A DNA stretch of 64,000 nt from Vulcanimicrobiota bacterium (GCA_963714015.1 OY970223.1:64001-128000); one strand, 5' to 3'; shown: positions 7,151-25,324, counted from the first letter of the stretch. Notes: generated from the sequence alone by a model not told the origin. Program-made: numbers and translations.

Positions 7151-7211
7151 GCGTCGTCTCGCCTTCAGGCGAACCTCATCCTAACTGGGGGCGTTTTGAT
7201 TTCACGCTAAT
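7151..7211 (+). repeat. degenerate copy R0 of the dispersed intergenic element
   Basis: GCGTCGTCTCGCCTTCAGGCGAACCTCATCCTAACT...GATTTCACGCTAA aligns with the core and both 13-mer boxes of the other copies. Confidence 0.6.
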
Positions 7212-8133
7212 TGTGACTTAAGGCCATCATCGCGGGCGGCTGCTCATCTTCGCGAATCCGATCGAGATCGGAAATAAGGTCCGGTCCCGTTGGATCCCAT
7301 CCGAGCCGTTCTCTGGTCAAGGCGCTCGACGCCGGCAGATCCGCTGCGACAAGAGGCGCGAGCCACCCAAAATGCTCTGCCGCTTCTTTATCGGTAATGG
7401 ACTTCGCTGGGACACCGGTACGCCTGCCGATGGCTTCCGCGATGTCACGAAGTTTCACGCCTTCCTCGGCCACGGCGTGATAGCGTGTCCCGGCGTCTGC
7501 ATTTTTCTCCAACGCGAGGTCGGTAAAGATGCGCAACGTTTAAAACGTGTGCGGCCGGCCAGCGATTTGCGCCGTCACCTACAAAGGCAGAGACGCCTTT
7601 CTCTTTTGCCAACCCAATCAGCATCGAGATCAATCCATGTTTGAGCGGATTGTGCACCTGCGGAAGGCGTACGACCGAAACGCGTACGCCGTGAGCCGCA
7701 ACGGCGTCGGCTGCCTCTTCGGACGCATTGCGCGGGAATTGCGCACTGGACGCATGCGGATCGACTTCCGTTGCGCTTCGGCCCTGCGTCAACGTGCCGA
7801 TTCCAGAGGTGACTAAAAACGGACGATTCGAGCCCGCAGAGCTCCCGCGCCCATCGCCTCAATAGCGCGCCGATCGATCTCGCAATTTTCTTGAAACTTC
7901 GAAAACTCATGAATGAACGCGAGATGAATGACGCCGTCGGCTTTTGCAGCGCCGCTGCGCAAGCTTTCTACATCTTCAACCGAACCGCGATGCGCCTCAG
8001 CGCCGGCGGCTGCTAGCGCATCGACCGACGAATCAGAGCGCGCAAGTCCGATTACCTGGTGACCCGCGGCGATAAGTTCCGACGTGACCGGCACGCCGAT
8101 GAATCCGGACGCTCCGGTAATAAAAACACGCAT
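7207..8133 (-). CDS. NAD-dependent epimerase/dehydratase (extended SDR), frameshifted across ORFs 7813-8133, 7445-7792 and 7207-7536
   Basis: [41 protein letters not shown] in successive frames. Confidence 0.8.
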
Positions 8134-8152
8134 TGAAGATGCCTCCTGGTGG

Positions 8153-8208
8153 GGTGATGTCAGTTTCTGTCATCACCATGATACACCTGATGTCAACCAC
8201 TGTCATGA
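8153..8208. promoter_or_regulatory. two candidate TetR operators
   Basis: GGTGATGTCAGTTTCTGTCATCACC (8153-8177) and TGATGTCAACCACTGTCATGA (8188-8208) between divergent SDR and TetR genes. Confidence 0.65.
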
Positions 8209-8226
8209 CCTGCTATACTCGTGACT

Positions 8227-8793
8227 ATGGGGAGATGGGAGCCGAATGCGCAAGGGCGCCTGATTGAGGCGGCGCTAGCACTCTATAGGGAGCGCGGGTT
8301 CGAGCAGACGACCGTTGCGGAAATCGCGAACCGGGCCGGACTCACCGAGCGCACATTTTTCCGGTACTTTGCGGACAAGCGGGAGGTGCTCTTTTTTGGA
8401 TCGGAGACGCTTCAAAGCGCTTTGATCGAAAGCCTCGAGCGAGCGCCTGCGGAGCTGCCGCCGATTGATGCCGTCGGCGTGGCGCTGCAAAGCATTTCGA
8501 CGTTTTTTGCAGATCGCCGCCCGCATTCATTGCGGCGCCAAGCGGTGATCGATGCAAATCCGGAGCTTCAAGAACGTGAGCGCAAAAAGCTCGCGTCGCT
8601 TGCTGTTGCGTTTGCAACCGCATTGCAGCAACGGGGCGCAAAAGCGTCAACCGCTACACTCGTTGCAGAAATGGGTGTCGCCGTTTTCAAGATTGCATTC
8701 GAGCGTTGGCTCAGCGATCCGGAAGAGCGCAACATCGCATACCATGTCGGCGAGTCGCTCGACGAACTGAAATCCGCAACCGCTGGACGCTAA
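8227..8793 (+). CDS. TetR family transcriptional regulator
   Basis: GFEQTTVAEIANRAGLTERTFFRYFADKREVLF. Confidence 0.92.
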   Translation: MGRWEPNAQGRLIEAALALYRERGFEQTTVAEIANRAGLTERTFFRYFADKREVLFFGSETLQSALIESLERAPAELPPIDAVGVALQSISTFFADRRPHSLRRQAVIDANPELQERERKKLASLAVAFATALQQRGAKASTATLVAEMGVAVFKIAFERWLSDPEERNIAYHVGESLDELKSATAGR

Positions 8794-8840
8794 GGTCGCT
8801 TTTCAAAGCCTTTCACTGTGTTCCTAAACTAAATCAAGCG

Positions 8841-9998
8841 TTATAAGACCTGGTAGAAGGCGAGCATCCCCGCGGCCATGTGGTCGGAATAGTGGCAATG
8901 GAAGAGCCAAATGCCGGGATTGTCGGGAACCATGTCGGCTTCGAGCATCTGCGCCGCGCCGATGTTGAGCACGTCAGTGCGGTGTCCTTGGAAGAGCACG
9001 GTATTCCCGTGCCAGTGCGGCGTGTGGAGGTTGAAACCATTGCCGAGGCTGATCACGTACCATCTAACGTGCTCCCCGCGGCGCATCACCATCTTCGGAC
9101 CCTCGCCATAGAGATAGCCGTTGATCGTGAATTTGAGGTTTCCGTCGGCGAAGCCGTGGCCCGTCAACGACACGCCGCCGCCGTCTTCGTCGAAGGCCAA
9201 CGTTTGGAGTTTGTCTTTCGATGTAAGATTCGGCGTGAATGTTCGCATGTTGCGATCGAGATACCAGCTCTGGTTCTCGTTGAACATCTCGAAATCCGCA
9301 ATGAACTCGCGGTCGACGTCTTTGGGAGTGCCGTCCGGACGCGCCATCCCCCGCCGGGAAATAATCATCGCGCCGACGAGGCCGGCATCGACGTCGCGCT
9401 GATCCTCCGTATGCGAGTGATAGAACCACACGACGGAACTCCCGTCTTCGGGCCCCGGACCGGCGCGTTCGGGCACTTGCCACGTGTAGGTGTAGATATG
9501 TCCTGGCGGAACCGCGCCGCCGATTTTGCTGGCGCCGCTCGAACCGTCGTCGTAGGCGCTGCCTTCATTCGCCTTCGTGTAAAAAACGCCGTGCGGATGA
9601 ACGCTGTACGGATGCGACCCGTTGTTTTTGAATACGACCTTGATGGTGTCGCCGACTTCGGCGTGGATGATCGGCCCAAGGATGCCGAGGTACTGCTGAT
9701 TAGCTGGGCGCGGTTTGAGGTGCTTGAACGTGCCGTCGGTGTACTCGCGATAAACGGCTTTCCAGTACTTGGCGCCGATTTCGTTGCGACTACGCACCGT
9801 ATACGCGTCGCCGATCTTCGTATAGGGCATGTTCATCATGGCGTCTTTGCCGAGGGGCGCGTAATTCCAGACGACTTCGTCGGCAGCGATGTAGTACGTC
9901 CGGACGTGGCCGCTTTGCGGCTTGGGTGCTGCGGCGAGCACGGCCGCTATGATAACGGCCAGGACCAAAAAGGGAAGAAAGAGGCTAATATAACGCAT
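8841..9998 (-). CDS. secreted two-domain multicopper oxidase, ceruloplasmin/hephaestin-like
   Basis: signal peptide; copper motifs HPHG, YHSH, HTPHWHG, HCHYSDHMAAGM. Confidence 0.9.
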   Translation of the reverse strand: MRYISLFLPFLVLAVIIAAVLAAAPKPQSGHVRTYYIAADEVVWNYAPLGKDAMMNMPYTKIGDAYTVRSRNEIGAKYWKAVYREYTDGTFKHLKPRPANQQYLGILGPIIHAEVGDTIKVVFKNNGSHPYSVHPHGVFYTKANEGSAYDDGSSGASKIGGAVPPGHIYTYTWQVPERAGPGPEDGSSVVWFYHSHTEDQRDVDAGLVGAMIISRRGMARPDGTPKDVDREFIADFEMFNENQSWYLDRNMRTFTPNLTSKDKLQTLAFDEDGGGVSLTGHGFADGNLKFTINGYLYGEGPKMVMRRGEHVRWYVISLGNGFNLHTPHWHGNTVLFQGHRTDVLNIGAAQMLEADMVPDNPGIWLFHCHYSDHMAAGMLAFYQVL

Positions 9999-10377
9999 TT
10001 CGCACCTTTCACAGCGCGGCGGCGCCATGCTGTGGTTGGATTTAGCGTGTGCGGACGATAACCTCTGACAATAAACTCACGAAGCGCGGAAGCATAACGC
10101 TACCCGCAGCGACGTCGTCGCTGAGAGCGACCGTTGCCGTTTTCGCGGAGAAACAGCAGCCCAAAGCGCGATTCGGATTTTGCCGGCGTATAGCGATGCT
10201 TGGCGGTTTTAAGCAGAGATGAGTCGCGAGTTTTGCGGCAAGGCGGCGCCCGGCGTACCGGCGGCCAGGGCCGGGTACCTTAGTAGCACGAGGTAACTGC
10301 TATGAGATTCTTTCGTATTGTCGGATTAGTGCGAGCGCAGAGCGACGGTTCAAATGCCGACGTCGAGAAGATGCAGC

Positions 10378-11179
10378 ATGAACACTGGAACGCAAAATTC
10401 ACGCCCAATCGCCGGTGTCACCGGTGCTTCCAGCGGCATCGGACGCGCGCTTGCGGAGCAGTTCGCGAAAAACGGGTTCGATCTAGTCATCGCAGCAGAA
10501 GACGAAAACATCGACGCAGCAGCGGACGAGCTTCGGGCGCTGGGATGCAGCGTCTATCCGGTTCGGGCAGATCTTACGGAAGAAGCGGGCGTGGAAGAGT
10601 TTGCGGCCGCGCTGCGGCAGTACGGTCCGCCATATGCCGTGGCAATCAATGCGGGCATCGGCAGCAGCGGCCGATTCGCCGAGACGGAGCTGGAGCAAGA
10701 GTTACGTTTGGTGGATCTGAACTGCCGCTCCGTCGTGCATTTGGCAAAGCGCGTGGTGCAGATGATGAATGGCAGGGAAGGCCGCATCCTCGTGACCAGT
10801 TCCATAGCCTCACTCGCGCCGGGCCCCTACGAGGCCGTCTATTCCGCCTCCAAGGCCTTTGATTATTCATTTGCGCTTGCATTACGTCACGAGCTTCAAG
10901 AAACCGAAATCAGCGTAACGGCCCTCATGCCCGGTCCTACCGAAACAAATTTTTTCACGCGCGCGCACGCGGAGGATACAAAACTCGGGCAAGAGCCGAA
11001 AGACGATCCGCAGCTCGGTTGCCAAACAAGGCTATGAAGCCCTGATGTCGGGCAAGGACCACGTCATCGCCGGATCGATGAAGACGAAGATCCAGGGCGC
11101 GATTATGGGCGCGCTTCCCGACAAGGCGAGCGCCGCCATGCACGCGCAAGAATCGAAACCGGGATCGGCAAAAAAATGA
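10378..11179 (+). CDS. short-chain dehydrogenase/reductase with a +1 frameshift near 11017
   Basis: TGASSGIG, NAG, YSASK; C-terminus continues in another frame to TGA at 11177-11179. Confidence 0.8.
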
Positions 11180-11945
11180 TGGAACGAAAAACATTCGTGG
11201 GCGTGGCCAGCGCTGCCTTAACGGCAGTCTTCAGTCTGGGACGGGCAGATGCCGCAAGTCCGGTCAGCGAGAAAGTCAAACGCAATCCGCAAACGGAGTA
11301 TCCGAAACCGCCATATCCGGAGCAGTCGTAGCCATGGCCCGGTCTTGCGAGCCGCATGACGCCTCGCCCCGATCACGGCGAACTCTCGTATCGCGGCAGC
11401 GGCAGGCTAACGGGCCGCAAAGCACTTATCACCGGCGGTGATTCCGGCATGGGCTCGCGCTGCGGCAGCCTGACGCGGCGGAAGTTCTGCAGTATGTCCG
11501 CTCCGCCGGACGCAGAGCCTTTGCACTGCCCGGCGATATTCGAAGCGAGTCGTTCTGCACGAACCTTGTGGATCGCGCCGCATAGCAGCTGGGCGGACTA
11601 CACATCGTCGTCAATTGCGCTGCGCGCCAGCAATCGCGCCAATCCATTGCCGATCTTACGACGGACGAGTTCGACTGGACGATGAAGACGAATCTGTATG
11701 CGATGTTCTGGCTAACCAAAGCGGCGCTCGAGCACATGGGTCCGGGTTCCGCGATCATCAATACTGCGTCGATTCAGGCCTACGATCCGTCGCCGAACCT
11801 GTTTCATTATTCAATGACCAAGGCCGCTATTGCGAATTTCACCAAAGCGATGGCCAAACAACTCGCATTAGCCGGGCGCGGAATTAGGATCAATGCGGTT
11901 GCTCCCGGCCCGATATGGACGCCGCTTCAAGTCAGTGGAGGACAC
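11179..11945 (+). pseudogene. YghA-like SDR oxidoreductase pseudogene (in-frame stop, internal deletions, 3' truncation)
   Basis: [69 protein letters not shown], then homology breaks. Confidence 0.8.
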
Positions 11946-12020
11946 CCTACCAACCTTTATCAAGGCGGGAAATTCTCCAAACCACGGACTCGCAAAGCGA
12001 GCGCGACGCCGCGGACCCCT

Positions 12021-12093
12021 CGGTGTCTATACACGCAATTTCGCCCTGATTAGTACTTTTTAGGCAGCTCGAATGAGACCGCATTAGAACGCT
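12021..12093 (+). repeat. degenerate or partial copy R0b of the dispersed element
   Basis: CGGTGTCT...AATTTCGCCCTGATTAGTACTTTTT resembles core plus box; TGAGACCGCATTAGAACG resembles TGAGTCCGCACTAGAACG of R7. Confidence 0.45.
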
Positions 12094-12095
12094 GC

Positions 12096-12140
12096 TTGAC
12101 AAGGCATACCATGCCATGTATACTGTGCCACACACACTAT
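12096..12140 (+). promoter_or_regulatory. sigma70-type promoter overlapping a candidate PadR operator
   Basis: TTGACA (12096-12101), 17 bp spacer, TATACT (12119-12124); imperfect inverted repeat ATACTGTG...CACACTAT. Confidence 0.75.
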
Positions 12141-12503
12141 ATGGTAACCACTACGGCCGTTTCTGCACCAGGGGAATCCGAACGCTTTGAGGCGCTGCGT
12201 CAAGAGCTGCGGCGGGGCTGCCTGGCGCTGGCCGTCCTGGCACAACTGCGCCGAGAGCATTACGGCTACACGTTGCGCAAGGCGCTCGACGATCTCGGTC
12301 TGGAGATCGACGAAGGCACCCTGTACCCGCTGCTGCGCCGACTCGAATCTCAGGGCCTACTCGAGAGCGAGTGGCGGGAGACCGACAAGCGCCGCAAGCG
12401 GTTCTACAAAATTTCATTGAGCGGTGAACGCGTGCTCACCATGCTCGAAGACGAATTCGCTCGCCTCAATGCGGCGCTTGCACGCATCATTCAGGAGGCT
12501 TGA
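12141..12503 (+). CDS. PadR family transcriptional regulator
   Basis: YGYTLRK...EGTLYPLLRRLESQGLL...RRKRFYKIS. Confidence 0.92.
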   Translation: MVTTTAVSAPGESERFEALRQELRRGCLALAVLAQLRREHYGYTLRKALDDLGLEIDEGTLYPLLRRLESQGLLESEWRETDKRRKRFYKISLSGERVLTMLEDEFARLNAALARIIQEA

Positions 12504-13435
12504 GTACCGTGACCACGCTTGACCGTTATCTCGCCGCCGTGCAGCAGCATCTTCCCGAATCGCTCGACGATCGGCAGGGTATCGTGGACGAGCTCGCCGA
12601 CGCCATTCATTCCGATCTAGAGGATCGACAAGCGCTACTCGGACGGACGCTTACCGATGACGAGGTCTCGCATTTCATCAAAGGCTTCGGCCATCCGCGA
12701 TCGGTTGCGGCGCGTTATGCAAAGCAGCATGGGCTGGTCGATCGTGAAATCTTCCCTTTTTATGTCGACGTCTTGACGAAAATTCTCTCGTTTGCCATTC
12801 CAGCCGAACTTCTGATTTTCACGGCAATCGCCGTTGCTACGCGTGACATGGCGTGGTTCTGGCAAGGCTTCTCAACGGCGTGGCAATCGCTGCTTCTAAT
12901 CTCGGCGATCGTAACGATCCTCTTCGCGGTCTTCGAGCGCCTTCCTCAATACGAGCACCGGCTCGGCATGCTGGGCTGCGATTGGGACCCGCAGCGTCTT
13001 CCCGCATCCTATTCAGCACATCCGTCCAACGCGCGGGCAGGCGGGTTTGCCGCATTCTTCTTCAACGCAATCGCACTGCTGCTGCTGCTTCAGATTCCGT
13101 CGTTCGGAGTCTCCTGGCTCGCGTTCGTAATGACGCCATCATGGCATCCCCTGTACGTTTTCGCGATCATCGCGACGGGCGCGACGGCGCTTACCGGTTT
13201 GCTGATCCTTGCGCTGCCGAGGGTCGCCCCTGTACGAGATTGGGCGGCCATTGCAGTCAACGCCCTCCTTATCGTCGGATGCGCTATCGCGCTGCACGGC
13301 GTATGGACGACAAGCAGCATCGCGGTCGTCGTCACGCTGGTTGCCGCAATCGCAATACTCGCGTTCTACGGTGCGGCGAGTTTTCGGAGCGTCGCCACGC
13401 CGGCGTGGAACCAAAGGCGCCAACCAGACCTCTAG
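12500..13435 (+). CDS. PadR-associated membrane protein with HAAS-like N-terminus
   Basis: LDRYLAAVQQHLP...DELADAI...GFGHPRSVAARY followed by several TM helices. Confidence 0.75.
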   Translation: MSTVTTLDRYLAAVQQHLPESLDDRQGIVDELADAIHSDLEDRQALLGRTLTDDEVSHFIKGFGHPRSVAARYAKQHGLVDREIFPFYVDVLTKILSFAIPAELLIFTAIAVATRDMAWFWQGFSTAWQSLLLISAIVTILFAVFERLPQYEHRLGMLGCDWDPQRLPASYSAHPSNARAGGFAAFFFNAIALLLLLQIPSFGVSWLAFVMTPSWHPLYVFAIIATGATALTGLLILALPRVAPVRDWAAIAVNALLIVGCAIALHGVWTTSSIAVVVTLVAAIAILAFYGAASFRSVATPAWNQRRQPDL

Positions 13436-13494
13436 AAACAGCGGCAAGGGAGCGTCGACGAGTTAAGCTGCGCCTTTGCGAACGCGTCGTCCGG

Positions 13495-13983
13495 CTACTT
13501 AAGTGCGTCGCGCAACGCGCGTCTCAGATCACCCATGCCTGGATAAACGAAGTTATCGATCTTCAACCCTGAGGAAGTATGAACCACTATAACCCGCACC
13601 ATGGTGCTGCCGTTACCGCCCGAAAGCCGCACGCGCACCTGAACCGCGCTCGTTCCACGATTGGAAGAGCTGCCGATCGCGTAAGAAGCCGGCTCGGCCT
13701 GCGCTCCGCTGAAAGGATCGAAATCGAGCATTTGCGCCTGTTCTTGACGTTCTTTGCTGACGAGTTTCTCGAGCGAAGCATAGAGCGACGGCGTTAAGTA
13801 AGCGCGTGCGCCGGAAATGTTTGTCCAATCTCCATGCGTGGCTAAATACCACGTGTAAAAGGCATTGACGACGCGAACCGCTCCGGAAGTTTGGGCGTAC
13901 GCGATGCGGCCTCCAAAAACGGCAATCGCGATCAACACGAAAGCGGTGAAGAGCGGGTGAATTCGAACGCGCATTTGCTTCAA
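13495..13983 (-). CDS. secreted DUF3828/YbjP-like protein
   Basis: signal peptide, VVNAFYTWYL, LDFDPFSGAQ, KIDNFVY. Confidence 0.65.
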   Translation of the reverse strand: MKQMRVRIHPLFTAFVLIAIAVFGGRIAYAQTSGAVRVVNAFYTWYLATHGDWTNISGARAYLTPSLYASLEKLVSKERQEQAQMLDFDPFSGAQAEPASYAIGSSSNRGTSAVQVRVRLSGGNGSTMVRVIVVHTSSGLKIDNFVYPGMGDLRRALRDALK

Positions 13984-14162
13984 CGATAGGCGCCTAAATC
14001 GGTCACGGCAAGGGCCACTTGCACTACGTCGGCGACACGCACGGAACGTTACTCAGGACGCCGCGCGGCCGTTGTAGCGTCCGTGATGTTTATACGGTAC
14101 TCCGAGCTGACTCATGAACGCCTCATAGCGCGTCCACATTCTAGACGGGCATACCCCGCGGT

Positions 14163-15953
14163 TCATATTCCGGCGTGGCGAAGCGAGTCGAGGACTTCGC
14201 GCATTAACGCTGCATCGTGCTTGAGCAGAACGTTTTCCGCGTGCATTTCGCTGAGTTCGCTGGAAAGCGCGGCGGCACGGATATGTTCGTATGCGCCTGC
14301 GGCAGCCTGACAGAGTTGCTCGAGCACGCGTTTCTCGTCACCGTCGATCGCCTCGCCGCCGGCGTGGCCGCCGTACAATACGAAGCCGCAGAGCCGGTGA
14401 CGTACGATGAGCGGTACAGCCAAAAGCGGATGCTCCAGGCCGGCGGGCAGGCTGTCCGTTCGAAGGTCCGCTATCGCGATCGTTTGCAGTTCCGCGCGAA
14501 GCGTGAGTGCGAGACGATCCCCGGATGAAAACGATTGCGCATCGCCGTGCGCCCATCCGCGCGAGCAGACGCGTTCGAACCGTCCGGCCGTAACCTCACG
14601 GAAAACTGCCGCCGATGCGAGCGAGAAAGCGTCCGCGGCCTCATCCACCAGCGTTTGGTCGACGAACGCCGCAGTTTCGGCATGCGAGAGAGCGCGCGCC
14701 TCACGCTGGACGCGCGCTTCGGCTAAGTGCCGCCGGCGGAACAGCACGCGATCGACGAACCGATCGACGCGCGCGTGAAGCGTATTGAGCCAGACACCAA
14801 ACGCGAGCGCCACAACTGCCTCGAGCACCAGTGCGATTTGCAGATGCTCCAAAAATCTGGATGAAAGAAAATCAACGAGCGCAAACGCGCCGACAACGAT
14901 ACCGGTGAGTATCGAGTACACGACTGTCCGACTGACCGCAAACGACACATCAATGACGCGGTGGCGCACGATACCGTAAGCAACTGCCGCAGCGAGTGCG
15001 ATCATAGCTAGCGCCATCATCGCGCACAATGAAAACATCACGGCTTGCTCCGTCACGGCGGCGCGCGTAATCTGATATAGCATGCGAGATGCGACGAAAA
15101 GCGCGTACGCCGCGAGCACCGGAATGATGCGCTGCCGTTCGCTGCCGACGGATGCATACGCTGACATCGCAAGCACGCAAATTGCGACGATCGTCAGCGC
15201 GATGTCAAGGTAGATTTGGTAGACCGCGACGGCTAGCGCAAGCGGCGGGACGGGGCCAAGCAAGGCAAGCGTTACATAAATCGTCTCGAGTGCTACCGCG
15301 GCGCCGATGGCCGGCGCGGCGCGGTCCAGTGCTGCAATCGCGCCGCGCGGCCGGTCGTACGGAAAACGGCAGACGAAGATGATGATTCCGGCCGCGGATA
15401 ATCCGCGAATCAGATCGACGGCAACATTCGCCAGCAAATATGCGCCCACACCGCGGTGTCCGTAATCGAAGGCTGCTGCCTGCGGAAGTGCAAAGACCAG
15501 CGTGGAAAGCAAAAATGCCCACGTCATGCGCGATGGCCGCAAGTACACGAGCGCGAGCGCGAAGAGCGCAAACAGTTGACCGACAAGATGCGAGATGTGC
15601 TGCACCGCGTTTACCGCGGGGTCCCACGCACGCGCCGGAACGGAAATTGTGCGTGTTTCGCTGCCCGGGTGCGCGATACTGAACGTGAGGCGCTGCCCTT
15701 GACGCAGCTGCTGCACGAGCACGGCGTTCGCGCGGCCCATTACCGGCAAACGCAACCAATCGATTTTGTCGCCCGCCCGCACGCCGGCGTCCGCAATTGC
15801 GCCGCGGCGCGTCACATACGAGACGGTCGTGGCATCGCTCCCGACATTCCAGCCGAGCGGGCCGTATGCGACGTTCCAAGTGCCGAGCTCAACGGCAATG
15901 CACAACCCAACGCAGCATGCGAACAGCGCTAAGATTGCCGATCGGATGGCCAT
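14163..15953 (-). CDS. PDZ-like + multi-TM + GAF-like membrane protein with no output domain (paralogue 2)
   Basis: ADAGVRAGDKI (PDZ-like), RHRVIDVSFAVSRTVVY, HARVDRFVDRVLFRRRH, LAVPLIVRHRLCGFVLYG. Confidence 0.8.
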   Translation of the reverse strand: MAIRSAILALFACCVGLCIAVELGTWNVAYGPLGWNVGSDATTVSYVTRRGAIADAGVRAGDKIDWLRLPVMGRANAVLVQQLRQGQRLTFSIAHPGSETRTISVPARAWDPAVNAVQHISHLVGQLFALFALALVYLRPSRMTWAFLLSTLVFALPQAAAFDYGHRGVGAYLLANVAVDLIRGLSAAGIIIFVCRFPYDRPRGAIAALDRAAPAIGAAVALETIYVTLALLGPVPPLALAVAVYQIYLDIALTIVAICVLAMSAYASVGSERQRIIPVLAAYALFVASRMLYQITRAAVTEQAVMFSLCAMMALAMIALAAAVAYGIVRHRVIDVSFAVSRTVVYSILTGIVVGAFALVDFLSSRFLEHLQIALVLEAVVALAFGVWLNTLHARVDRFVDRVLFRRRHLAEARVQREARALSHAETAAFVDQTLVDEAADAFSLASAAVFREVTAGRFERVCSRGWAHGDAQSFSSGDRLALTLRAELQTIAIADLRTDSLPAGLEHPLLAVPLIVRHRLCGFVLYGGHAGGEAIDGDEKRVLEQLCQAAAGAYEHIRAAALSSELSEMHAENVLLKHDAALMREVLDSLRHAGI

Positions 15954-16094
15954 ACAGCACGGTATTCGGTTGCACGGGACCTCCGCCCTACGGCCAAAGG
16001 GCGGACCAGCAACCGTGGATGATTGCACCTATTTTTTGTGCTGAATAATGATCGATCTGGATTGATCGATTTGGGAACAGCCCAGTTTACTCTT

Positions 16095-16220
16095 TGAGAC
16101 TACTTCCCTTAACGCACGGTTTTTCGTCAGTTAGGCTAGGCAGCACTAAAAGGGACGTAGTCTCATCTTTTAGGCGCATTTCACACGAACTAGCAGTCTT
16201 GGCGTGGATTTCACCCTAAC
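16095..16220 (+). repeat. copy R1 of the dispersed element, including a 16-bp inverted repeat
   Basis: CAGTTAGGC...GACGTAGTCTCATCTTTTAGGCGCATTTCACACGAACTAGC...TTTCACCCTAAC; boxes at 16179 and 16209. Confidence 0.8.
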
Positions 16221-17816: not shown

Positions 17817-17843
17817 AACCGTAACCAGTAGGCAATCGAAGCG

Positions 17844-17914
17844 CTGGAATGCCGGAACGCTAGAACGCTAAAACGGCGTTGTCTCACGTTTAGCGCTATT
17901 TCACTTTAACAGCC
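17844..17914 (+). repeat. copy R2 of the dispersed element (four 8-mers, core, one box)
   Basis: CTGGAATG CCGGAACG CTAGAACG CTAAAACG GCGTTGTCTCAC...TTTCACTTTAAC. Confidence 0.88.
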
Positions 17915-17934
17915 ATTCTCTCCCTACCAACCTT

Positions 17935-18480
17935 GTGAGCGCGGCACGGCTCGCGCTTGCCGCTGCAGTGCTCTACGCGGTCCTGAAGCGCCGGGTGTTC
18001 GACCTTTCGTTTGCCGTCAGCAAGACGCTGGTCTACCGATCATCACCTCGCTCGCCGTCGGCGCCTTCGTTCTTATTGCTCGAAGTGTGCGTCGCCTTGG
18101 GCTTCGGGATTTGGCTGAACGCGATGCATAACGGCATCGATCACTTCGTCGACCGCGTACTGTTCCGCCGGCGGCATCTCGCCGAGGTCACGATCGAAAC
18201 GTGCGATGCGCTGGATCTTTCGTCGGCTGCAGTATTCCGCAAAGACGGCGAACGCACTTCAAGCGATTTACTTCACTTGGATGGATTCGCAGCACGCAGT
18301 GGCAACCGCCGGTGAGAACCTTCGTGGTTCGACATGAAGTCGAGGGCTTTTTGCTTTAGGGCGCGCACAACGGCGGCCAAGCCGTCGACCCGGACGAGCA
18401 GCGAGTGCTCGAATGTTTGACGCAAGCCGCTGTCCCGACCGTACGAATATCTGCGCGCGAAAGCATTCCAGGGCGATGCA
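17935..18480 (+). pseudogene. collapsed remnant of a TM-GAF paralogue (paralogue 4)
   Basis: KRRVFDLSFAVSKTLVY, WLNAMHNGIDHFVDRVLFRRRHLAE, later AHNGGQAVDPDEQRVLE; N-terminus and internal segments missing. Confidence 0.8.
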
Positions 18481-18708
18481 CGCGCACTACGCGCCGAAAT
18501 GCCACAGCACCGCTAGACACGTTCTGATGTAGCGCGACCGACAGATGGTGCAGGATTTGCTTTGGTGCGGTCGAGCGATACGAGCGCACGCGAGAGACTG
18601 GATAAGAAGGGCCGGCCAAAAACGGCCGAGCCTTCAAAAAGCCCCGTGTTGCCAGATAGTTTTGGGTGTCTTGCGCCTCTATCTTGACATTTATAGAATT
18701 ACGAGGTC

Positions 18709-18785
18709 CTAGAACGGCGTTCTCTCACCTTTTAGGAGAATTTCACTCTAACTAGCCGTTTTTGCACGCATTTCACCCTAACTGC
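18709..18785 (+). repeat. copy R3 of the dispersed element (one 8-mer, core, two boxes)
   Basis: CTAGAACG GCGTTCTCTCACCTTTTAGGAGAA TTTCACTCTAACT (18741) ... TTTCACCCTAACT (18771). Confidence 0.9.
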
Positions 18786-18849
18786 GTTTTTTTCACGTTG
18801 CCAGTCAAGAAAATAGGGCTCCCGAACCCGCCACGTCGAAAACCCTTAA

Positions 18850-20528
18850 ATGCGGCCAAGGCATATCGCTGCCGTTTTCTGCGCGGCCATTGCGCTGATT
18901 TTTGTCCTCGCCATAGGGGCGAGTCTTCCCCAGGCGAGCGCCGGTATAAGACTGGGGATTTCACAGCGGGTCGCGCCCGATCATTTCCGCATTTCCCAGC
19001 TTCCACGGGGTAGCACCTCGGGCGCACGAGTAGGCGACGTTCTCGATACGCGGGCGCTCACCGTCGAACAGCGTTCGCGCTATTGGAACGGAGAATCGCG
19101 CGCCGGTGCGACGGTTGCGGTCACGCTGTTCCGCAACGGTAAGCCCGTGACCGTGTACGCCACGGTGCCGGCGCGGGATCCGCAGACGCAGGTCGCAGAC
19201 GACATCTGGTTTGGACTGTTGTGTTTCGGGGTCGTCGCAGGCTTGCTGCTGATGTCCCGCGGCCGCGGCAAGGCGTCGTTCACCGCAGGCCTGATGCTGC
19301 TCACGCTCGGCATAACATTAGCGCCGATCGGTGCATGGATTACGCCGGTTTGGCTAAGCGTCGCGCTATTTGAACTGGAGTCTGGTGCCAACCGGCGTTT
19401 GCGGTTTGCGCGTTCGTACTCGGCATGTTGCTATTGCGCGAGAGCGTCTCGCGTCCTGTTCGGGCATTGCTCATTATTGCGGCGTCTATTGCGATCGGGA
19501 GCGAAACCTTCGTCTGGTCTTTCGACTACGGCCTGTGGATGTTCACCGGCCACACCGAAGGCGGTCAACTGGTTTATCCGTACGCGGCCACTGCGTGGAT
19601 ATCGGTGACCATTCTGACGTTTGCGTTAGCGGCGGCTCGAACGCGAGGAAGTGATGCGGCAGCAGTCCGTACGCTCTTCGTCGCCACACTCATCGGGCTG
19701 GGCGCTATTGCTTGTACGTATTTGGCCGAGTTCCATTTGGTGCCCACGCCGCCGCGGCTGGTGTCGGCCGTATGTCAGCTCGTACTGTTCGTCGGCTACT
19801 TTTATGCCTTTTTTGCGCGCCGCCTGGTTGCACTGGATTTTGTGATCAGCCGCGCGGCGGTGTTTACCATTCTCGCGGGTGTCATTGCCGGCGTACTCGC
19901 CCTTGTTGAGAAATTCGTCGAATCATTCGCGCTCGGGCGTGAATCGATTTTCGTGGTCGAACTCGGTGCGACACTGCTGGTGGCGCTGTCGTTCCGGTGG
20001 CTGGAACGCCGCATCAGCGTCGCCGTGGAGCAGGTGTTTTACCGCGACAAATTGAGGGCCGCCGAGGCGCTGGGCGCTTTGACCGACGATTTCCCCTTTC
20101 ATCGCGATCGGACCGCGCTGGCCAATCATCTCGTCCGCGAAGTACTCCGCCAGCTGCGCGTACCTTCAGCGGTTTTGTATTTCGCGAAAGGGCACGAATA
20201 CGTCGCTGAAGGCGCTGCGGGCGCCGACCTCTTATCCTGCCCGCCCGTTGCGGATACCGATCCCGCTATTCTTCGTTTGCGATCCAAGCATAGCCCGATA
20301 GACTGCCATGATTTTCAAACACAATTGGGATCGAGCGGGTACGCGTTTCCACTCGACGTGTTGGGGCGTGCAATCGGCTGTCTATACGTTGCAGCGCGCG
20401 CAAATGGAGAAGGGCTAGATCCGGACGAACGCACATTGCTTACGCGCCTTGCGCATGAAGCCGCAACGGCATTACTTTGGATGACGGAGCACAAAACAGC
20501 CGCAGCAGATGAGGCTTACAGCACTTAG
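18850..20528 (+). CDS. PDZ-like + multi-TM + GAF-like membrane protein (paralogue 5), frameshifted near 19375-19415
   Basis: SGARVGDVL; RRLVALDFVISRAAVF, AFPLDVLGRAIGCLYV, GEGLDPDE in ORF 19425-20528. Confidence 0.75.
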
Positions 20529-20541
20529 AGCACGCAGCGAA

Positions 20542-20570
20542 GAAAAGCCCTCGGTTATTGCGGGCTTTTC
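20542..20570. terminator. bidirectional terminator-like hairpin upstream of R4
   Basis: GAAAAGCCC-TCGGTTATTGC-GGGCTTTTC. Confidence 0.7.
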
Positions 20571-20584
20571 AATTTCGCGCAAGA

Positions 20585-20682
20585 TGAGAACGCTAAAACG
20601 CCAGAACGTCAGAATGGCGTTGTCTCACGTTTTAAGCGAATTTCTCCGTAACTAGCGATTTTTGCACGCATTTAACCCAACT
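20585..20682 (+). repeat. copy R4 of the dispersed element (four 8-mers, core, two boxes)
   Basis: TGAGAACG CTAAAACG CCAGAACG TCAGAATG GCGTTGTCTCAC...TTTCTCCGTAACT (20641)...TTTAACCCAACT (20671). Confidence 0.9.
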
Positions 20683-20818
20683 CAACGGTGAAGTGCCTCT
20701 GACCACATAACCGGTTAATGGAGTTTCTCGGTTAGTAGCGCGGTTCCAGGAACGCGGCGTGCGCGCGGCCTACGCCTAGGGGTGGAATTAGGCCGTGCGT
20801 CTAAGATATTACGTTGCC

Positions 20819-22588
20819 ATGAAGACCGAGTCGCCTTCAATCGGCACTTGGAAACGATGCCTCGTAGCATGCGTTGTAATCGGTCTTGCCGCCGTGCTCG
20901 CGTCCGCCTACATTCAACGCGTGCCATTCCCCGATCTCGGTTTTGACCTGCGCGTCGACGCAGCATCACGGAATGTTTTTGTTTCTTCCGTTGACCGGGC
21001 CACCCCGGCCTGGCGTGCTGGCTTGCGTCCCGGCGACGCGCTTGCCGTTAAAGACTTGGATATATCGCAACGCATAATTTTGTCAGGCCCGACACAGCCG
21101 TCCGTAGATCCTTTGCGTGTTGACCTGCCGGTTTTACGCAGCGGCAGTACGCACAGAATTTCGTTCGCCGCCCGTGCCGACGCGGCTACATTAGAGACGC
21201 TGTTCGCCAATTACTTCGTCCTCATCGGCGACCTGCTAATGTTAGCCGTTGCGCTCCTCATCGGCACGCGCAAACCGGAAAACCGCGACGTACGGGATAT
21301 CTGTCTCGTGCTGCTGACCTACGCAGTCGGAAACGGTTTGTACAACCTGAGCCTTAACTGGGCTCCGCTTCTGATTCTGATGAACATCGCGAATTTGGGT
21401 CCGATTCTCTCTGCGGTTTTATTTGGTCTCTTCGCGATGCGTTTCGTCACCAACGTTAAGGCACGCACGCTTGCGACAGGCATCGGCAGCGCGATTTTCC
21501 TTGCGGCCAGCGTGTTGACAGTGCTCTTCCTGATGGGAGCAGCGACGGCCCGTCCCGATCCGTTCTGGCTCTCGCGATGGCCGTGGACGTCTTACTTATT
21601 CGCAGAAAGCTCTCACTATTTCTTTGCACGTCTCTTCGCGCTGATCTGCGGCATTTACGCGATCGCCGCCTCTCGCGGGGCGCAGCGGCAACGTATCGTT
21701 TGGGCGACGGCCGCGGTAGCAGTCCTGTATGGAACAGCGGTGATCGTCCAACCTCTTGTTCGGCTTGGCGTTATACCCGTGTCATTTGACGAACCGATCG
21801 TCGACGTCGGCGTCTTTCTTTTCCCAATCGGGCTTGCGTACGCGGTGCTGAAACGACGAATACTTGACATCGGATTCGTCATCAACCGCGCCGCGGTGTT
21901 TTCCGGCGTGTCGATCATCGTCGTGGGCATCTTCGTACTGGTGGAGTGGCTGCTATCGGAATGGTTCGGAAGCCTGAGCCACACGGCAAATCTGGCTATA
22001 GGCGCTGCTTTGGCACTCTTCTTAGGTTTTTCGGTGCGAGCGATTCACCAACACGTGGACCGCACTCTCGACGCGGTCTTTTTCCGAAAGCGGCATGAAG
22101 ACGAGAAAGCCATCCGAACGTTTGCGCATGAGGCCTCGTACATAACGGACCTTGGAACGCTCATCGCGCGCGCGAAGCAGACGCTCGAAGCTCATGCCGA
22201 CGCCGCGTTCGCCAACCTAGCGTTAGACGACGGCCTTGGGCTTTACGGCGACGTGAGCGAAAACGATCCCGCGATCGTCGCCTTGCAAGCATGGCGCCAG
22301 GTGCTCGATCTTCATACCGTGCAAACCCGGTTGCAAGGCGAATTCGCCTATCCGATGATCGCACGTGGCCGTCTAGTGGGTGCGCTTATCGTCGGGCCGA
22401 AGCGCACCGGTGAGTCGTACGCGCCAGATGAATCCGACGCGATCGCGCAGCTTGCACACGGGGTCGGTGGCGCGCTGGACATCCTGACGCTCAATGCGGG
22501 CGTTTCGTTAGAAACCTTGTCCGAACAACTGCGCGACTTTCGCGATACCATGGTGGCCGAGCTTCGCGCAATGCGTGCTCCGCTGTAA
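20819..22588 (+). CDS. PDZ + multi-TM + GAF-like membrane protein with no output domain (paralogue 6)
   Basis: VDRATPAWRAGLRPGD (PDZ), KRRILDIGFVINRAAVF, AYPMIARGRLVGALIVGPKRTGESYAPDE. Confidence 0.82.
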   Translation: MKTESPSIGTWKRCLVACVVIGLAAVLASAYIQRVPFPDLGFDLRVDAASRNVFVSSVDRATPAWRAGLRPGDALAVKDLDISQRIILSGPTQPSVDPLRVDLPVLRSGSTHRISFAARADAATLETLFANYFVLIGDLLMLAVALLIGTRKPENRDVRDICLVLLTYAVGNGLYNLSLNWAPLLILMNIANLGPILSAVLFGLFAMRFVTNVKARTLATGIGSAIFLAASVLTVLFLMGAATARPDPFWLSRWPWTSYLFAESSHYFFARLFALICGIYAIAASRGAQRQRIVWATAAVAVLYGTAVIVQPLVRLGVIPVSFDEPIVDVGVFLFPIGLAYAVLKRRILDIGFVINRAAVFSGVSIIVVGIFVLVEWLLSEWFGSLSHTANLAIGAALALFLGFSVRAIHQHVDRTLDAVFFRKRHEDEKAIRTFAHEASYITDLGTLIARAKQTLEAHADAAFANLALDDGLGLYGDVSENDPAIVALQAWRQVLDLHTVQTRLQGEFAYPMIARGRLVGALIVGPKRTGESYAPDESDAIAQLAHGVGGALDILTLNAGVSLETLSEQLRDFRDTMVAELRAMRAPL

Positions 22589-22623
22589 AAAAAGCGCAGT
22601 CGAAGAGTCGCCGCGCTTTTAAT

Positions 22624-22710
22624 TCGAAACGCTAGAGCGTTAGAACGTCAAAACGCTAAAACGTCAGAACGCTAAAACGGTCAAAACGGCGTTATCTCAC
22701 CTTTTAGGCG
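22624..22710 (+). repeat. copy R5 of the dispersed element (eight 8-mers and core; boxes absent), preceded by a hairpin at 22587-22620
   Basis: TCGAAACG CTAGAGCG TTAGAACG TCAAAACG CTAAAACG TCAGAACG CTAAAACG G TCAAAACG GCGTTATCTCACCTTTTAGGCG. Confidence 0.9.
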
Positions 22711-22760
22711 TCCGGCACTTCGTGTCCGCCTGATCGAAGCATTGTGTGGCGCGACTGCGT

Positions 22761-22790
22761 AAAAAAGCCCTGCAAATGCGGGGCTTTTTG
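22761..22790. terminator. bidirectional terminator-like hairpin upstream of R6
   Basis: AAAAAAGCCCTGC-AAAT-GCGGGGCTTTTT. Confidence 0.7.
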
Positions 22791-22812
22791 GTCTTAATCT
22801 TTTGGATCTTCA

Positions 22813-22928
22813 CTAGAACATTAGAACCTAAAACGTCAAAATGCTAGAACGCTAGAACGTCGTTGTCTCACCTCTTACGGGAATTTCACCCTAACTAGCG
22901 CTTTTTGCATAAATTTCGTCCTAACTGC
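22813..22928 (+). repeat. copy R6 of the dispersed element (six 8-mers, core, two boxes)
   Basis: ...CTAGAACG CTAGAACG TCGTTGTCTCAC...TTTCACCCTAACT (22884)...TTTCGTCCTAACT (22914). Confidence 0.9.
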
Positions 22929-23210
22929 GCGCGAGGCCGGTTGGTCCTGCGCCATGCGGGATGCTGGCACGAATGAAAGGTCCATTGTCGGCGCGTGTGC
23001 TTGTGGTACGCCGGCCAGCCGCCGGGAGCGTCGATGCACCGCGGATTGTTCGGCGTCGTCGGATACGTGCGCGTTTTGGCACCCGGAAAGTCGTTTATCT
23101 TGGGAACAAACACTCGGTTTATACGCGTCAGTGGAATGGCACCGAAAAGTTCCTAAACGCTTCGGATTGAAAACGAAAAGTGCACGTTTGAATGTGAACG
23201 TGTTCGCGCC

Positions 23211-23711
23211 TCAAACCCTGCCTGCGAGTAACTCATCCAGCTGCGCGAACTGTTCGGGCAGGCCTTCCGCCGAACCGGCGAGGGCTTCGTCGAGGGCCGC
23301 TTCTGTGGGGTAAAGTTCGTGTAGAATGACCAGCGTCTTGCCGGCATTTTCTTCGAACGTCACAGTGGTCACGGCGCCCTGATCGCTTTCTTCGTTCGTC
23401 CAGACGAGACGCTTGTTCGGCGTCACTTCTCGGTACGTGCCGAAGAACGCCATCGGTTGATCGAAGGCCGGATGGCGGAACACGAGGCGATACGCGCCCC
23501 CGGTGCGCACATCCATGTCGCACGAGACCAGCGACATGCCTGCCGACTTCGGAACCCACCAAATCTTGAACAATTCGGATTTGCTCCACGCTTCGAAGAC
23601 GATGTGCGCCCGGGCATTGAACGTTCGCGTCACGACGAGTTCGCGGTCGGACTTGCGTTCCACCACTGTGCGGTTGATGGTGGCGGGACTAGTTTCTTTT
23701 GCTTCAGGCAT
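23211..23711 (-). CDS. SRPBCC/AHSA1 (START-like) domain protein
   Basis: ELVVTRTFNARAHIVFEAWS...CDMDVRTGGAYR. Confidence 0.88.
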   Translation of the reverse strand: MPEAKETSPATINRTVVERKSDRELVVTRTFNARAHIVFEAWSKSELFKIWWVPKSAGMSLVSCDMDVRTGGAYRLVFRHPAFDQPMAFFGTYREVTPNKRLVWTNEESDQGAVTTVTFEENAGKTLVILHELYPTEAALDEALAGSAEGLPEQFAQLDELLAGRV

Positions 23712-24055
23712 CTGACTTCTCCTTACATTTCAAGTGCTCGACAATCTTGTCCAGCGCGTCGAAGCGTGCGCTCCAGAGCTGGCGGTGCCGCTCGATCCAG
23801 GCGGCCTCTTCTTCCAGCGCGCGCATGCCAAGTCTGCAGGTTCTGACGCGCCCGGTCTTTTCAGTAGTGACGAGCGCTGCCCGCTCCAGCACGGCAACAT
23901 GCTTCTTCATGCCCGTGAGGGTCATCCGGAACTTTCCGGCGAGGTCCGTAATCGAGGCGTCGGAGTGGGCGAAGCTGCTCCAGCACGCCGCGCCGAGTCG
24001 CGTCCGAGAGCGCGGCGAATGAAGCGTCGAGGCGGGGTTCGTTATACTGAACCAT
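23704..24055 (-). CDS. ArsR/SmtB family regulator with a +1 frameshift near 23970
   Basis: FAALSDATRRGVLEQL, then MTLTGMKKHVAVLERAALVTTEKTGRVRTC in another frame. Confidence 0.85.
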
Positions 24056-24068
24056 ATAGTTCAGTATA
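24043..24068. promoter_or_regulatory. ArsR operator palindrome overlapping its own start codon
   Basis: TATACTGAAC-CATATA-GTTCAGTATA, perfect 10-bp arms. Confidence 0.75.
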
Positions 24069-24439
24069 TAGCAGATCGAATTGCCGCGCAAGAGGCAAGG
24101 TGCTGGCCTACTAAGGGCCGGCGACGAGCCGCTCGGTCAGCAGAAGGCTATCCCCGGCTCGAATTAGCGCTCCCTCACCGCTCGCGTGTTCGGGGCTCAC
24201 GGACAAAATTCGGTGCAGTATAGGCACGTTTCGTGCGCTTACGGTAGCCCTCGAGTATGCGATTTAGCACGCTGGGCAACGCCGGAATACTTGCCAATGC
24301 GCTTGACGACAACGCCGCGGTCCTGCAAGAACTGGATATGAGCGCAGACGCGCACGGATCCCTAAGCGCTGGAACGCCCTGTAAACACAGGGCGTTTCAG
24401 CATCATCGTATGCGAATGAATTACATTTCTATGTTAAGA

Positions 24440-24552
24440 CGAATTTCGTAACTCGCGATTTTCCGTTAGTTAGGTGAGTCCGCACTAGAACGGTCAAAAA
24501 CGTCAGAACGTCAGAATGTTAAAACGCTAGAACGGCGTTGTCTCTTAACTGC
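24440..24552 (+). repeat. copy R7 of the dispersed element (inverted box, six 8-mers, core, internal deletion); hairpin upstream at 24373-24396
   Basis: AGTTAGGTGAGTCCGCA CTAGAACG...CTAGAACG GCGTTGTCTC TTAACTGC. Confidence 0.88.
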
Positions 24553-24555
24553 AAA

Positions 24556-25116
24556 CTACGGCGCAAGCGACTCCTGCGCCTCGAGGCGCCAAGCCTCGAA
24601 GGCGCTCTCGAATTGAACGCGCTTTCTGAACGGAGCATTGTACTTGCGGACATCGAATGGCCGCCTGTTGAGGGCATCGAAAACGAGGTATTCGAAATCG
24701 GCCCATCGCGGATTACTCGGATGGCGTTCACGCCATGCGTATGCGAGCGGACCGAGTCTCTTCCATACGTCCGGGGACGTCATGATAATTGGAGCGAACA
24801 AATCACGATCTGCGATGCCGTAATTTATCAGCCTTGCTGCCGTTTGATAAAACCCACCGTACATCAGCACTCGGTGATCTATGCCTTCGCGCAGCGTCTT
24901 CTCCAGCAACGCAGCATCGCGAAAGTCGCACGTTTCGACATACTCGCGGGCGGCCACCATCTCTGGAGAGTTCAGGCGCCCCATCAAATCTACGTATGTC
25001 CCGATTTGGTACGTCAGGCGCAAATGTTTGAGTTGCACGATCGCAGCGACGGCTCCGACCAACACGACGAGCGCGCCGGCAATAGCGGCAAGCGCACTGA
25101 TTTCATCCCATCCCAT
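24556..25116 (-). CDS. DUF4760-like protein (N-terminal TM helix plus helical domain)
   Basis: AIAGALVVLVGAVAAIVQLKHLR...LNSPEMVAAREYV...WADFEYL. Confidence 0.6.
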   Translation of the reverse strand: MGWDEISALAAIAGALVVLVGAVAAIVQLKHLRLTYQIGTYVDLMGRLNSPEMVAAREYVETCDFRDAALLEKTLREGIDHRVLMYGGFYQTAARLINYGIADRDLFAPIIMTSPDVWKRLGPLAYAWRERHPSNPRWADFEYLVFDALNRRPFDVRKYNAPFRKRVQFESAFEAWRLEAQESLAP

Positions 25117-25201
25117 GGGTGAACTATTTTGTCGAGGTGCATCCTTCCGCCTGGGAAGCTAAGAAGAAGCCTCGCGATGAGTCGCCAGGCTCTTGATTTG
25201 A

Positions 25202-25226
25202 CTAGAACGTCAGAACGTCAGAACGG
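25202..25226 (+). repeat. copy R8, 8-mer arm only (three units), preceded by a hairpin at ~25165-25195
   Basis: CTAGAACG TCAGAACG TCAGAACG G. Confidence 0.8.
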
Positions 25227-25324
25227 AAGGGGGAACCAAAATCCGTTAACTTCCGAACAGCATTTTGCGATGATCCTGGTGTGCGACGCGACGTACTGCA
25301 AAAGCACGCCATACGCTTGTTGGT

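Follow-up and report, generated by a model that had tools for sequence, protein, structure and literature searches.

Introduction

Tandem accretion of integrative elements at a single attachment (att) site is established for cis-mobilizable elements (CIMEs) together with integrative and conjugative elements (ICEs); pdif/Xer modules carry dif-like 11-6-11 sites that alternate in orientation around the modules. Accretion at one att site has also been described, in the portions of the sources available, for the ssrA islands of Dehalococcoides (PMC3146451) and the tycheposon islands of Prochlorococcus (10.1101/2020.12.28.424599). According to the available part of their description, GInts (genomic islands that carry three integrases) insert preferentially at the end of ssb, the gene for single-stranded DNA-binding protein, with attL overlapping the stop codon and the protein unchanged; they carry a ginABCD operon (three tyrosine recombinases and a small protein) at the island's 5′ end and imperfect direct repeats of ~10-17 nt (PMC5385486). 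Tyrosine-recombinase transposons of the SE (strand-biased circularizing integrative element) and Tn554 types use a 6-bp spacer, and the available part of the source reports no arrays of integrase-less cassettes for them (PMC10214605). Here we describe a row of ten short modular sites, separated by small units, that lies downstream of ssb in the genome of an uncultured soil bacterium. The sequence analysed, called the window throughout, is a stretch of 64,000 nt corresponding to positions 64001-128000 of a single 3,562,638-base contig; the genome of the window is labelled G000, other genomes G### and loci from relatives L###.

The repeated sites are most probably att-type junctions left at the 3′ end of ssb by small units that integrated there in succession; a single gene is the usual content of a unit, and no unit contains an integrase. 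As in the accretion systems cited above, as far as the available accounts describe them, successive integrations at one site would displace older elements, partial copies of the target stand at the joints and integrase-less remnants persist; here, in contrast, the target is the stop codon of a protein gene, the units are mostly single-gene, at least ten joints with conserved arms lie within 18 kb, and an integrase remnant was not detected. The units resemble CIMEs in that they are flanked by att sites of an integrative element using the same site and are without recombination genes of their own. With integrons the array shares a single anchor, mostly single-gene units that each end in a site of one orientation, strain-variable content and an apparently newest unit nearest the anchor, but it differs in having no IntI, in sites that are not attC-like hairpins, in the varying orientation of its genes and in an anchor that lies inside an essential gene. 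Unlike those of pdif modules, the cores of the array all face one way, and no palindromic or dif-like core was found elsewhere in G000.

With GInts, as far as the available text goes (PMC5385486), the window array shares the ssb-end target, the overlap with the stop codon and imperfect direct repeats of 10-17 nt, which here flank the unit nearest ssb (unit A, below). In four relatives (L029, L030, L061, G135) the likeness extends to a tyrosine-recombinase operon at the ssb-proximal end, followed by cargo. The differences are that no gin-like gene occurs in the window or in G000, that the gene set of the relatives comprises two PF00589 proteins with open reading frames (ORFs) of 360 and 249 aa, and that the units of the window measure 0.1-3.5 kb as against 2.5-70 kb of GInt cargo. 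Motif arms of ~70-150 nt and amplified 8-nt cores such as those of the window are not mentioned in the available part of the GInt description, and the arms are unlike the GInt-like ends found here. By description, and within the part of the source available, likenesses to SE and Tn554-type transposons are several recombinase genes with a small protein, target specificity, a short spacer footprint and inverted end motifs (PMC10214605).

Results

A modular element confined to one locus and one strand

Reading and alignment of the sequences verified that ten sites in the window, numbered R1 to R10 from left to right, carry at least one module of a single element family. All lie on the + strand between 7152 and 25225. 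On this strand a U arm, where present, is followed by the octamer YYARAACG, single or in tandem runs of up to about eight and often amplified 3-8 times, and then by the B-C-D arm, composed of GCGTTGTCTCAC..TTTTAGG, then ATTTCACCCTAACTAGC and, ~30 nt further on, CATTTCACCCTAAC. The arm modules bear repeated TTTCAC-N3-TAAC motifs. Within 16156-25223 a repeat finder detected several repeat families that overlap; identity among the repeats, 70-150 nt long, is 70-88%, and Tandem Repeats Finder reported period-8 arrays at 17855, 20587, 22644, 22813, 24499 and 25204. The copies are heterogeneous joints rather than ten equal repeats.

A B-C-D profile run with nhmmer over all 3,562,638 bases gave seven matches at E ≤ 10, all on the + strand and all at window positions 7152-22929. 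Four of the seven are the copies from which the profile was trained (E 1e-19 to 1e-20), and the others are R4 (E = 0.026), R1 (E = 0.11, rank six) and R7 (E = 0.16). A regular-expression search of the genome returned 16 tandem octamer arrays of at least two units. All five arrays of three or more octamers lie in the window at 20585-25225, one two-unit match lies at 17860, and the remaining 10 of the 16 are two-unit matches scattered across G000. No copy of the element was found in the window to the right of 25241. Because the element is strictly local, a dispersed miniature inverted-repeat transposable element (MITE) or repetitive extragenic palindrome (REP) is excluded.

These results bear on an initial annotation of the same DNA, which had described about ten same-orientation modular copies, none of them in the core half of the window; both observations were borne out. 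It had further held that MITE- or REP-like copies dispersed in both orientations would speak against a junction array and had proposed a profile scan. That scan returned matches in G000 solely at the array downstream of ssb, on the + strand and at the one locus, and strong whole-genome BLAST matches in G137, G139 and G140 were confined to the neighbourhood of ssb.

The core octamer copies the end of ssb

The anchor of the array is evidently to its right, at the ssb stop codon (28729), whose sequence the 8-nt core copies. The gene itself (28729-29157, − strand) was identified by tblastn (86% to the SSB of G007, a homologue that matches the Pfam family SSB); it ends in ..DDEIPF-stop, and the array begins with this stop as its first core. 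Reverse-complemented, YYARAACG gives the final codons of ssb, (P)F-stop, which read CCG TTY TRR on the minus strand. In G007, which belongs to another genus, a full copy of the element (E 6e-13) is accompanied ~700 nt further on by an eight-unit octamer array whose reverse complement starts exactly at the ssb stop (..EEEIPF-stop, CCG TTC TAA), and the octamer thus corresponds to the last eight bases of ssb. An octamer or U-core abuts ..EIPF-stop in G007, G043 and G068, and an att at the ssb end that overlaps the stop and leaves the product unchanged is also present in G007, G043, G068, L029, L030, L074 and L093. G000, G007, G068 and G072 have a common gene order on the right of ssb and share nothing on the left; a conserved distal gene, found ~1.7-9 kb from ssb on its downstream side in at least 25 related loci, is 52.7 kb away in G000.

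On the ssb strand, 78 of the 98 octamer units in 26 arrays give a stop (TAG 34, TGA 31, TAA 13), and TGG, a non-stop one step away, appears only twice; the count includes two arrays that look unrelated and is no statistical test, since the units within an array are copies of each other. The end of ssb is written CCT TTC in G000 and CCG in two genomes of the same genus, a difference that fits an ssb end supplied by the unit that arrived last.

Anatomy of the junctions

The core of complete sites is flanked by inverted GTGAGAC / GTCTCAC half-sites around an 8-nt spacer, and a core between inverted half-sites is the layout of tyrosine-recombinase sites. Complete sites, as found in G007 and G068, run from two motif copies in direct orientation through one inverted copy (..GTGAGACA..) and the core to GCGTTGTCTCAC and two more direct copies, spaced ~20 and 30 nt. 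On the ssb-distal side, B-C-D presents GCGTTGTCTCAC followed by two ATTTCAC-N2-TA-N-CT sites 30 nt apart; complete sites have an inverted U arm across the core from it. In the 27 copies aligned, the motif has one of two second halves, CCTAACT or AGTATCT, and within a copy C and D always share their class.

Three types of junction were distinguished: U-core-ssb at the proximal end, U-core-B-C-D in internal positions (G068) and X-core-B-C-D at R5, where X is the left end of a GInt-like element. The combination of U-core-ssb at the proximal end with U-core-B-C-D internally is what would be expected from repeated integration of U-core-B-C-D circles into the end of ssb.

Two structural candidates were dropped. 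A structured RNA (riboswitch, small RNA or leader) was abandoned after an Rfam scan of the window gave no match and RNAalifold on the 27 copies returned an energy of 0 and no consensus structure. An attC-like hairpin was abandoned with the single-stranded DNA folds of the G000 copies at z = -0.7 and -1.2 relative to shuffles; G007 forms a short core hairpin only (single-stranded z = -2.6 and -3.2). The arms behave as predicted protein sites, not as RNA.

Arrays downstream of ssb in related genomes

What are recognizably the same arrays stand downstream of ssb, in one orientation, across genera of the Eremiobacterota. A pattern of four octamers was found in 6 of 121 sampled family genomes and its reversed control in none. 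In G068, at least six same-orientation copies terminate as a U-core junction at the ssb stop. An iterated B-C-D profile applied to 80 ssb loci with 10-kb flanks gave 17 matches in 10 loci, all downstream of ssb and all on the strand opposite to it, and the exact B motif occurred at ssb loci 13 times in the predicted orientation and never in the other. By whole-genome BLAST of five further genomes, strong matches lay only beside ssb in G137, G139 and G140, while G142 had none and G143 weak ones only. A metagenome scan with a 16-mer yielded nine true copies among 79 fetched loci, and four of the five long true copies had ssb within 6.4 kb and in the predicted orientation. In viral contigs the 16-mer had seven matches, none of which was a true copy by nhmmer. 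Weak matches in G023 (E 0.11) and G036 (E 0.84) were used for no claim.

At L024 (G120:C6:13700-33699), a four-unit array at ~10002-10040 follows a six-codon ..NAEIPF-stop remnant, with ssb on the same contig; this remote array may have been translocated, or may be what is left of a second ssb. In three relatives the variable regions downstream of ssb have received insertions of DDE transposase genes (DDE_Tnp_1, rve), at L023 16743-18275, L149 13206-14678 and L062 4030-5172.

Units recur in other genomes

The unit between R9 and R10 (24544-25217) contains a DUF4760 gene on the − strand (24556-25116) and has 93.3% DNA identity to L074 10453-11124 and 94.1% to L093 13873-14481; in L074 it lies directly after the ssb octamers. 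Against the same two loci, rpsF-ssb is 67-70% identical and the neighbouring 1129-aa core gene 67-72%, and the match of the unit stops at the cores and repeats. By this measure the DUF4760 unit has spread horizontally. The unit containing the gene at 16302 has 83% DNA identity to L030 18835-20414 and 82.5% to G001, and L033 contains the multicopper-oxidase and PadR units in exchanged order. In G001, which is of the same genus and has an SSB 94% identical, the 16302 unit is the only one in common within the ssb-proximal 25 kb, and it is accompanied by a reduced core-B-D remnant.

Recombinases at the same core in relatives

In L029/G104, L030, L061 and G135, the interval from the ssb stop to a distal core is occupied exactly by a GInt-like element, flanked by CCGTTYTRR, and older U/B-C-D units follow beyond it. 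The gene set of these elements starts ~120 nt after the ssb stop and encodes a 430-aa PF00589 protein, a ~550-aa PF00589 protein and two conserved ORFs of 360 and 249 aa. The ~550-aa protein is a strong match to NCBIfam NF041502 that falls below the cut-off of this model, and on the recombinase of the relatives the NCBIfam models for integron integrases score no better than E 0.0036. The AlphaFold2 model of the 360-aa ORF, a possible GinC-like third recombinase, was unusable (predicted local distance difference test score 34), and a PDB profile search with this ORF gave no match. In G000 the nearest PF00589 and PF00239 matches are more than 1 Mb from the window, and none of the six ORFs in the array of G068 is a recombinase.

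The initial annotation had seen in the repeats the recombination junctions of a platform for gene capture or tandem accretion, and their confinement to one locus, the arrays in other genera and the unit identity that ends at repeats support this. It had asked whether gene content and order between repeats vary: content differs even within the genus (G001) and order in L033. As to whether copies stand next to a recombinase, the answer is divided, with none near the array in G000 and tyrosine recombinases at the same core in the relatives named above. Its suggestion that any enzyme would act in trans or lie to the left stands in its first part, there being no cognate recombinase in G000, and fails in its second.

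The cumulative GC skew of G000 has its minimum at ~0.70 Mb and its maximum at ~2.40 Mb, and the only strong tyrosine recombinase of the genome (359 aa, probably Xer) is located at 2.40 Mb. G139, G140 and G141 have one 312-aa Xer-like gene each, which in G140 is the sole PF00589 match in the genome.

The ten sites

The two leftmost sites are reduced. R1 (7152-7212), recognized by nhmmer and alignment, is a degenerate B-C-D arm without an octamer array. R2 (12036-12092), identified by eye against the U arm of G007, consists of a U arm and one core octamer (TTAGAACG, 12085-12092) without B-C-D; the junction is followed by a TTGACA-17-TATACT promoter-like site and then by a PadR gene (Pfam). R3 (16105-16224; nhmmer E = 1.7e-19), upstream of the gene at 16302-17816, combines a partial U arm and a single degenerate core with a full B-C-D, and R4 (17844-17916) has four octamers, B and part of C. 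At R5 (18604-18786) an X remnant (18604-18708) precedes a single core (18709-18717) and a full B-C-D; the site retains 114 nt of the GInt-like left end X, 81.6% identical to L030 10418-10531 and including a minus-strand terminator. R6 (20585-20686), with a terminator-like hairpin in front, has four octamers and a full B-C-D.

R7 (22624-22710) has ~8 octamers and B only, and the ~100 nt that follow it contain a terminator hairpin and no gene, forming an empty unit before R8 (22813-22929), which has ~6 octamers and a full B-C-D. R9 (24425-24552) has a U arm, six octamers and a B fused to the end of D, a fusion that is an internal deletion relative to the L093 copy. R10 (25202-25225) consists of cores only, three octamers whose reverse complement, ..LPF-stop, looks like a displaced older ssb end.

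A terminator hairpin, GCCCTGCAAATGCGGGGC, is shared between L108 (G002:C152), at 530-700 after the ssb cores, and window positions 22762-22790 in R7-R8. Its orientation relative to ssb is opposite in G002 and in the window, and the G002 contig stops 320 nt past ssb.

Units and genes between the sites

Unit A (25226-28728), the unit nearest ssb, holds a GAF paralogue (25771-27300, − strand; Pfam) and small ORFs. It is bounded by a 13-nt inverted repeat (25229-25241 and 28717-28729) that occurs once per strand in the whole G000 genome, and its flanks are imperfect direct repeats of the ssb end, TTCCTTTCTAG at the present end of ssb and TTCCGTTCTGA at R10. Further from ssb, a unit with three ORFs on mixed strands (22954-24114) encodes a 119-aa protein (+), an AHSA1-like protein (23211-23711, −) and a 126-aa protein (+). 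Three paralogue units on the + strand lie at 20795-22588 (597 aa, with a weak PDZ match and GAF-family relatives), at 18850-20528 and at 16238-17814 (a membrane/GAF gene, 16302-17816). In the second of these, two ORFs (18850-19608 and 19425-20528) overlap in different frames, probably through a frameshift or an assembly error. A fragment of 126 aa (17935-18315, +) matches residues 355-478 of the protein encoded at 14163-16028. The interval contents given in the initial annotation hold, with single genes at 16302-17816, 20795-22588 and 24556-25116, one fragment and the empty R7-R8 interval, and with the two ORFs at 18850-20528.

By Pfam and BLASTP, seven members or fragments of one family (~500-620 aa, with a C-terminal GAF-like domain and 22-39% amino acid identity) lie within 27 kb, at 4831-6351, 14163-16028(−), 16302-17816, 17935-18315 (the fragment), 18850-20528, 20795-22588 and 25771-27300(−); relatives of the family bear names from Eremiobacterota lineages. 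Four units and three nearby genes are accordingly paralogues of one membrane/GAF family, and part of the repetition could be duplication. Paralogues at 22-39% identity cannot, however, explain upstream DNA that is 70-80% identical, and the arms are therefore either constrained or separately spread.

The product of 16302-17816 resembles the membrane and GAF part of the PEP-CTERM histidine kinase PrsK (TIGR02916, E 9e-12), without the kinase domain, and related 566-aa PDZ_6-positive proteins are encoded directly downstream of ssb in L074, L081, L086 and L092. The variable region also contains a decayed epimerase-like NAD-binding gene broken into three ORFs (7207-8133, −) and a short-chain dehydrogenase fragment (11356-12053, +) near an intact gene (10354-11037). 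In the core half, at 42570-42821, ~six copies of a 42-nt tandem repeat (ATGGACGAGCGTTTCGACGGAGTCGATCGGCGGCTCGACAA-like) probably encode a repetitive protein segment. Contigs of four public runs cover the locus in short, sparse pieces (best share of words 0.26), among which no joint at a core was seen; at 23499-24392, contigs of three public soil runs reach a depth of 12-33 as compared with ~0-4 elsewhere, and other organisms may commonly carry the ORF at 23734-24114 or its flank.

Discussion

According to the serial-integration model that we favour, units would circularize and then integrate at the core at the end of ssb by site-specific recombination, with the recombinase supplied in trans. 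The crossover core of the site would be a copy of the final ssb codons, flanked by arms that are putatively bound by the recombinase or by accessory proteins. Each incoming unit would restore P-F-stop and push older units away from ssb. Such restoration and displacement at each integration would produce joints of one orientation and an array that decays with distance, with the oldest sites, R1-R3, the most decayed, and stop codons would be kept in the cores because every core must be able to terminate ssb. We infer that the joints were made by site-specific recombination and that the recombinase-less units were moved in trans by an enzyme absent from G000. The tandem octamers, we further infer, arose at the core by out-of-register exchange between multi-core sites or by replication slippage; both are guesses, and the period-16 and period-24 super-repeats that Tandem Repeats Finder detected in the octamers of R7 favour unequal exchange.

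Several observations weigh against this model. Classical tyrosine recombination does not multiply the core, and it therefore leaves the octamer arrays unexplained. Neither the array nor its surroundings encode a recombinase, the window has no PF00589 match, and a tblastn search of the whole genome (E 1e-3) detected no homologue of the GInt-like genes of L030 in G000. The GInt-like large recombinase is present in 2 of the 121 family genomes and in none of the six with octamer arrays, and the GInt-like ends X and Y are unlike the U and B-C-D arms, so that the GInt-like enzymes are no obvious partners of the array. Among 74 ORFs of at least 270 aa at 17 element-bearing loci there was no tyrosine or serine recombinase; these ORFs were taken from 106 candidates, with all 27 ORFs of L023 and L024 and 5 overlapping ORFs of L149 left out and 7 ORFs of L023 scanned separately. 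No circular or excised form was seen, at a locus that public-run contigs cover only sparsely. L149 shows no ssb within 8 kb, the octamer array of G120 with its ..AEIPF-stop remnant lies ~300 kb from ssb, and most copies in G000 are without the left inverted half-site. Finally, four B-C-D copies are co-directional with and upstream of paralogous genes, an arrangement that duplication of a gene together with its upstream region would also give.

This last point leads to an explanation that we nevertheless consider unlikely, namely that the repeats are shared promoter or operator regions of tandemly duplicated membrane/GAF genes, whose TTTCAC-N3-TAAC sites and octamers bind a regulator. Seven paralogues at 22-39% identity do lie within 27 kb and B-C-D stands 30-130 nt upstream of four of them, but the arm also flanks unrelated genes, and DUF4760, RibD_C (G007) and TonB receptor (G068) genes converge on D rather than being read away from it. 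The orientation of the arm follows ssb and not the adjoining gene. The motifs resemble protein-binding sites with helical phasing, and the arms are far better conserved than the proteins; a scan for sigma-70-like sites nevertheless found none in the elements and 2 in the region as against 3.8 expected, although such a scan may not suit the promoters of this phylum. A regulatory role also sits poorly with a core that copies the ssb stop and with the empty R7-R8 unit.

A second explanation dispenses with a dedicated recombinase: the 3′ flank of ssb would have been multiplied by tandem duplication or unequal crossing-over, and units would have been swapped by homologous recombination through the repeats. 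Repeats of the observed length and identity could support RecA-dependent exchange, no cognate recombinase is encoded in G000 or in most array-bearing genomes, and the super-repeats of R7 point to unequal exchange. Against this stand two features with the anatomy of recombinase sites, namely the 8-nt spacer that complete sites hold between inverted half-sites and, in unit A, a 13-nt terminal inverted repeat with copies of the ssb end on its flanks, as well as the use of the same core by recombinase-bearing elements and the retention of stops in 78 of 98 cores. We judge this route, too, to be improbable. A locally multiplied MITE/REP-like element or one moved by an HUH transposase (REP-associated tyrosine transposase or IS200 type) is the most doubtful of all, for although the complete site is a long imperfect palindrome, G007 has a core hairpin as single-stranded DNA and the 8-nt unit is readable as a target duplication, the copies are not dispersed (none lies outside the ssb-downstream region in four whole genomes), they share a single orientation, their outer ends are not inverted repeats and those of G000 fold no better than shuffles.

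The ssb-stop core, the orientation rule and the recombinase-bearing elements at the same core are not jointly explained by any rival, and serial integration at the end of ssb remains the reading that we prefer. A bolder and less probable reading is that Eremiobacterota possess an integron-like gene-capture platform anchored at the ssb stop. Single-gene cassettes would carry a composite att, with an ssb-stop core between inverted half-sites and phased arm sites of two specificity classes, and a recombinase of the GInt type or another kind, rare and transient, would act in trans to insert, excise and shuffle them; the amplified 8-nt cores, with stops in all three frames, might act as multi-register landing pads by which the tip of the essential SSB is always restored.

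The targeting of the ssb end by GInts and the accretion of elements at one att site are known already. The literature searched contained no ssb-anchored arrays of integrase-less cassettes (the supplementary att lists of PMC5385486 lay outside that search) and no work on mobile elements of Eremiobacterota at ssb. By this measure, the new features are the rows of at least ten mostly single-gene, integrase-less units, the composite arms of two classes, the amplified 8-nt cores that copy a stop codon, and the Eremiobacterota host.

If the serial-integration model is true, the end of ssb, a known GInt target in Proteobacteria, would also be a landing site for long arrays of tiny integrase-less units, in a phylum with almost no genetics, and cassette arrays would have a second, independent route, besides integrons, for assembling accessory genes. 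The exact anatomy of the site, with its core, two half-sites and phased arm motifs of two classes, can be used to hunt for the missing enzyme, and octamer arrays after ssb could serve as a simple marker of variable regions in metagenome-assembled genomes. A stop kept in every core would be a rare case in which the coding need of a target gene is visible in mobile DNA.

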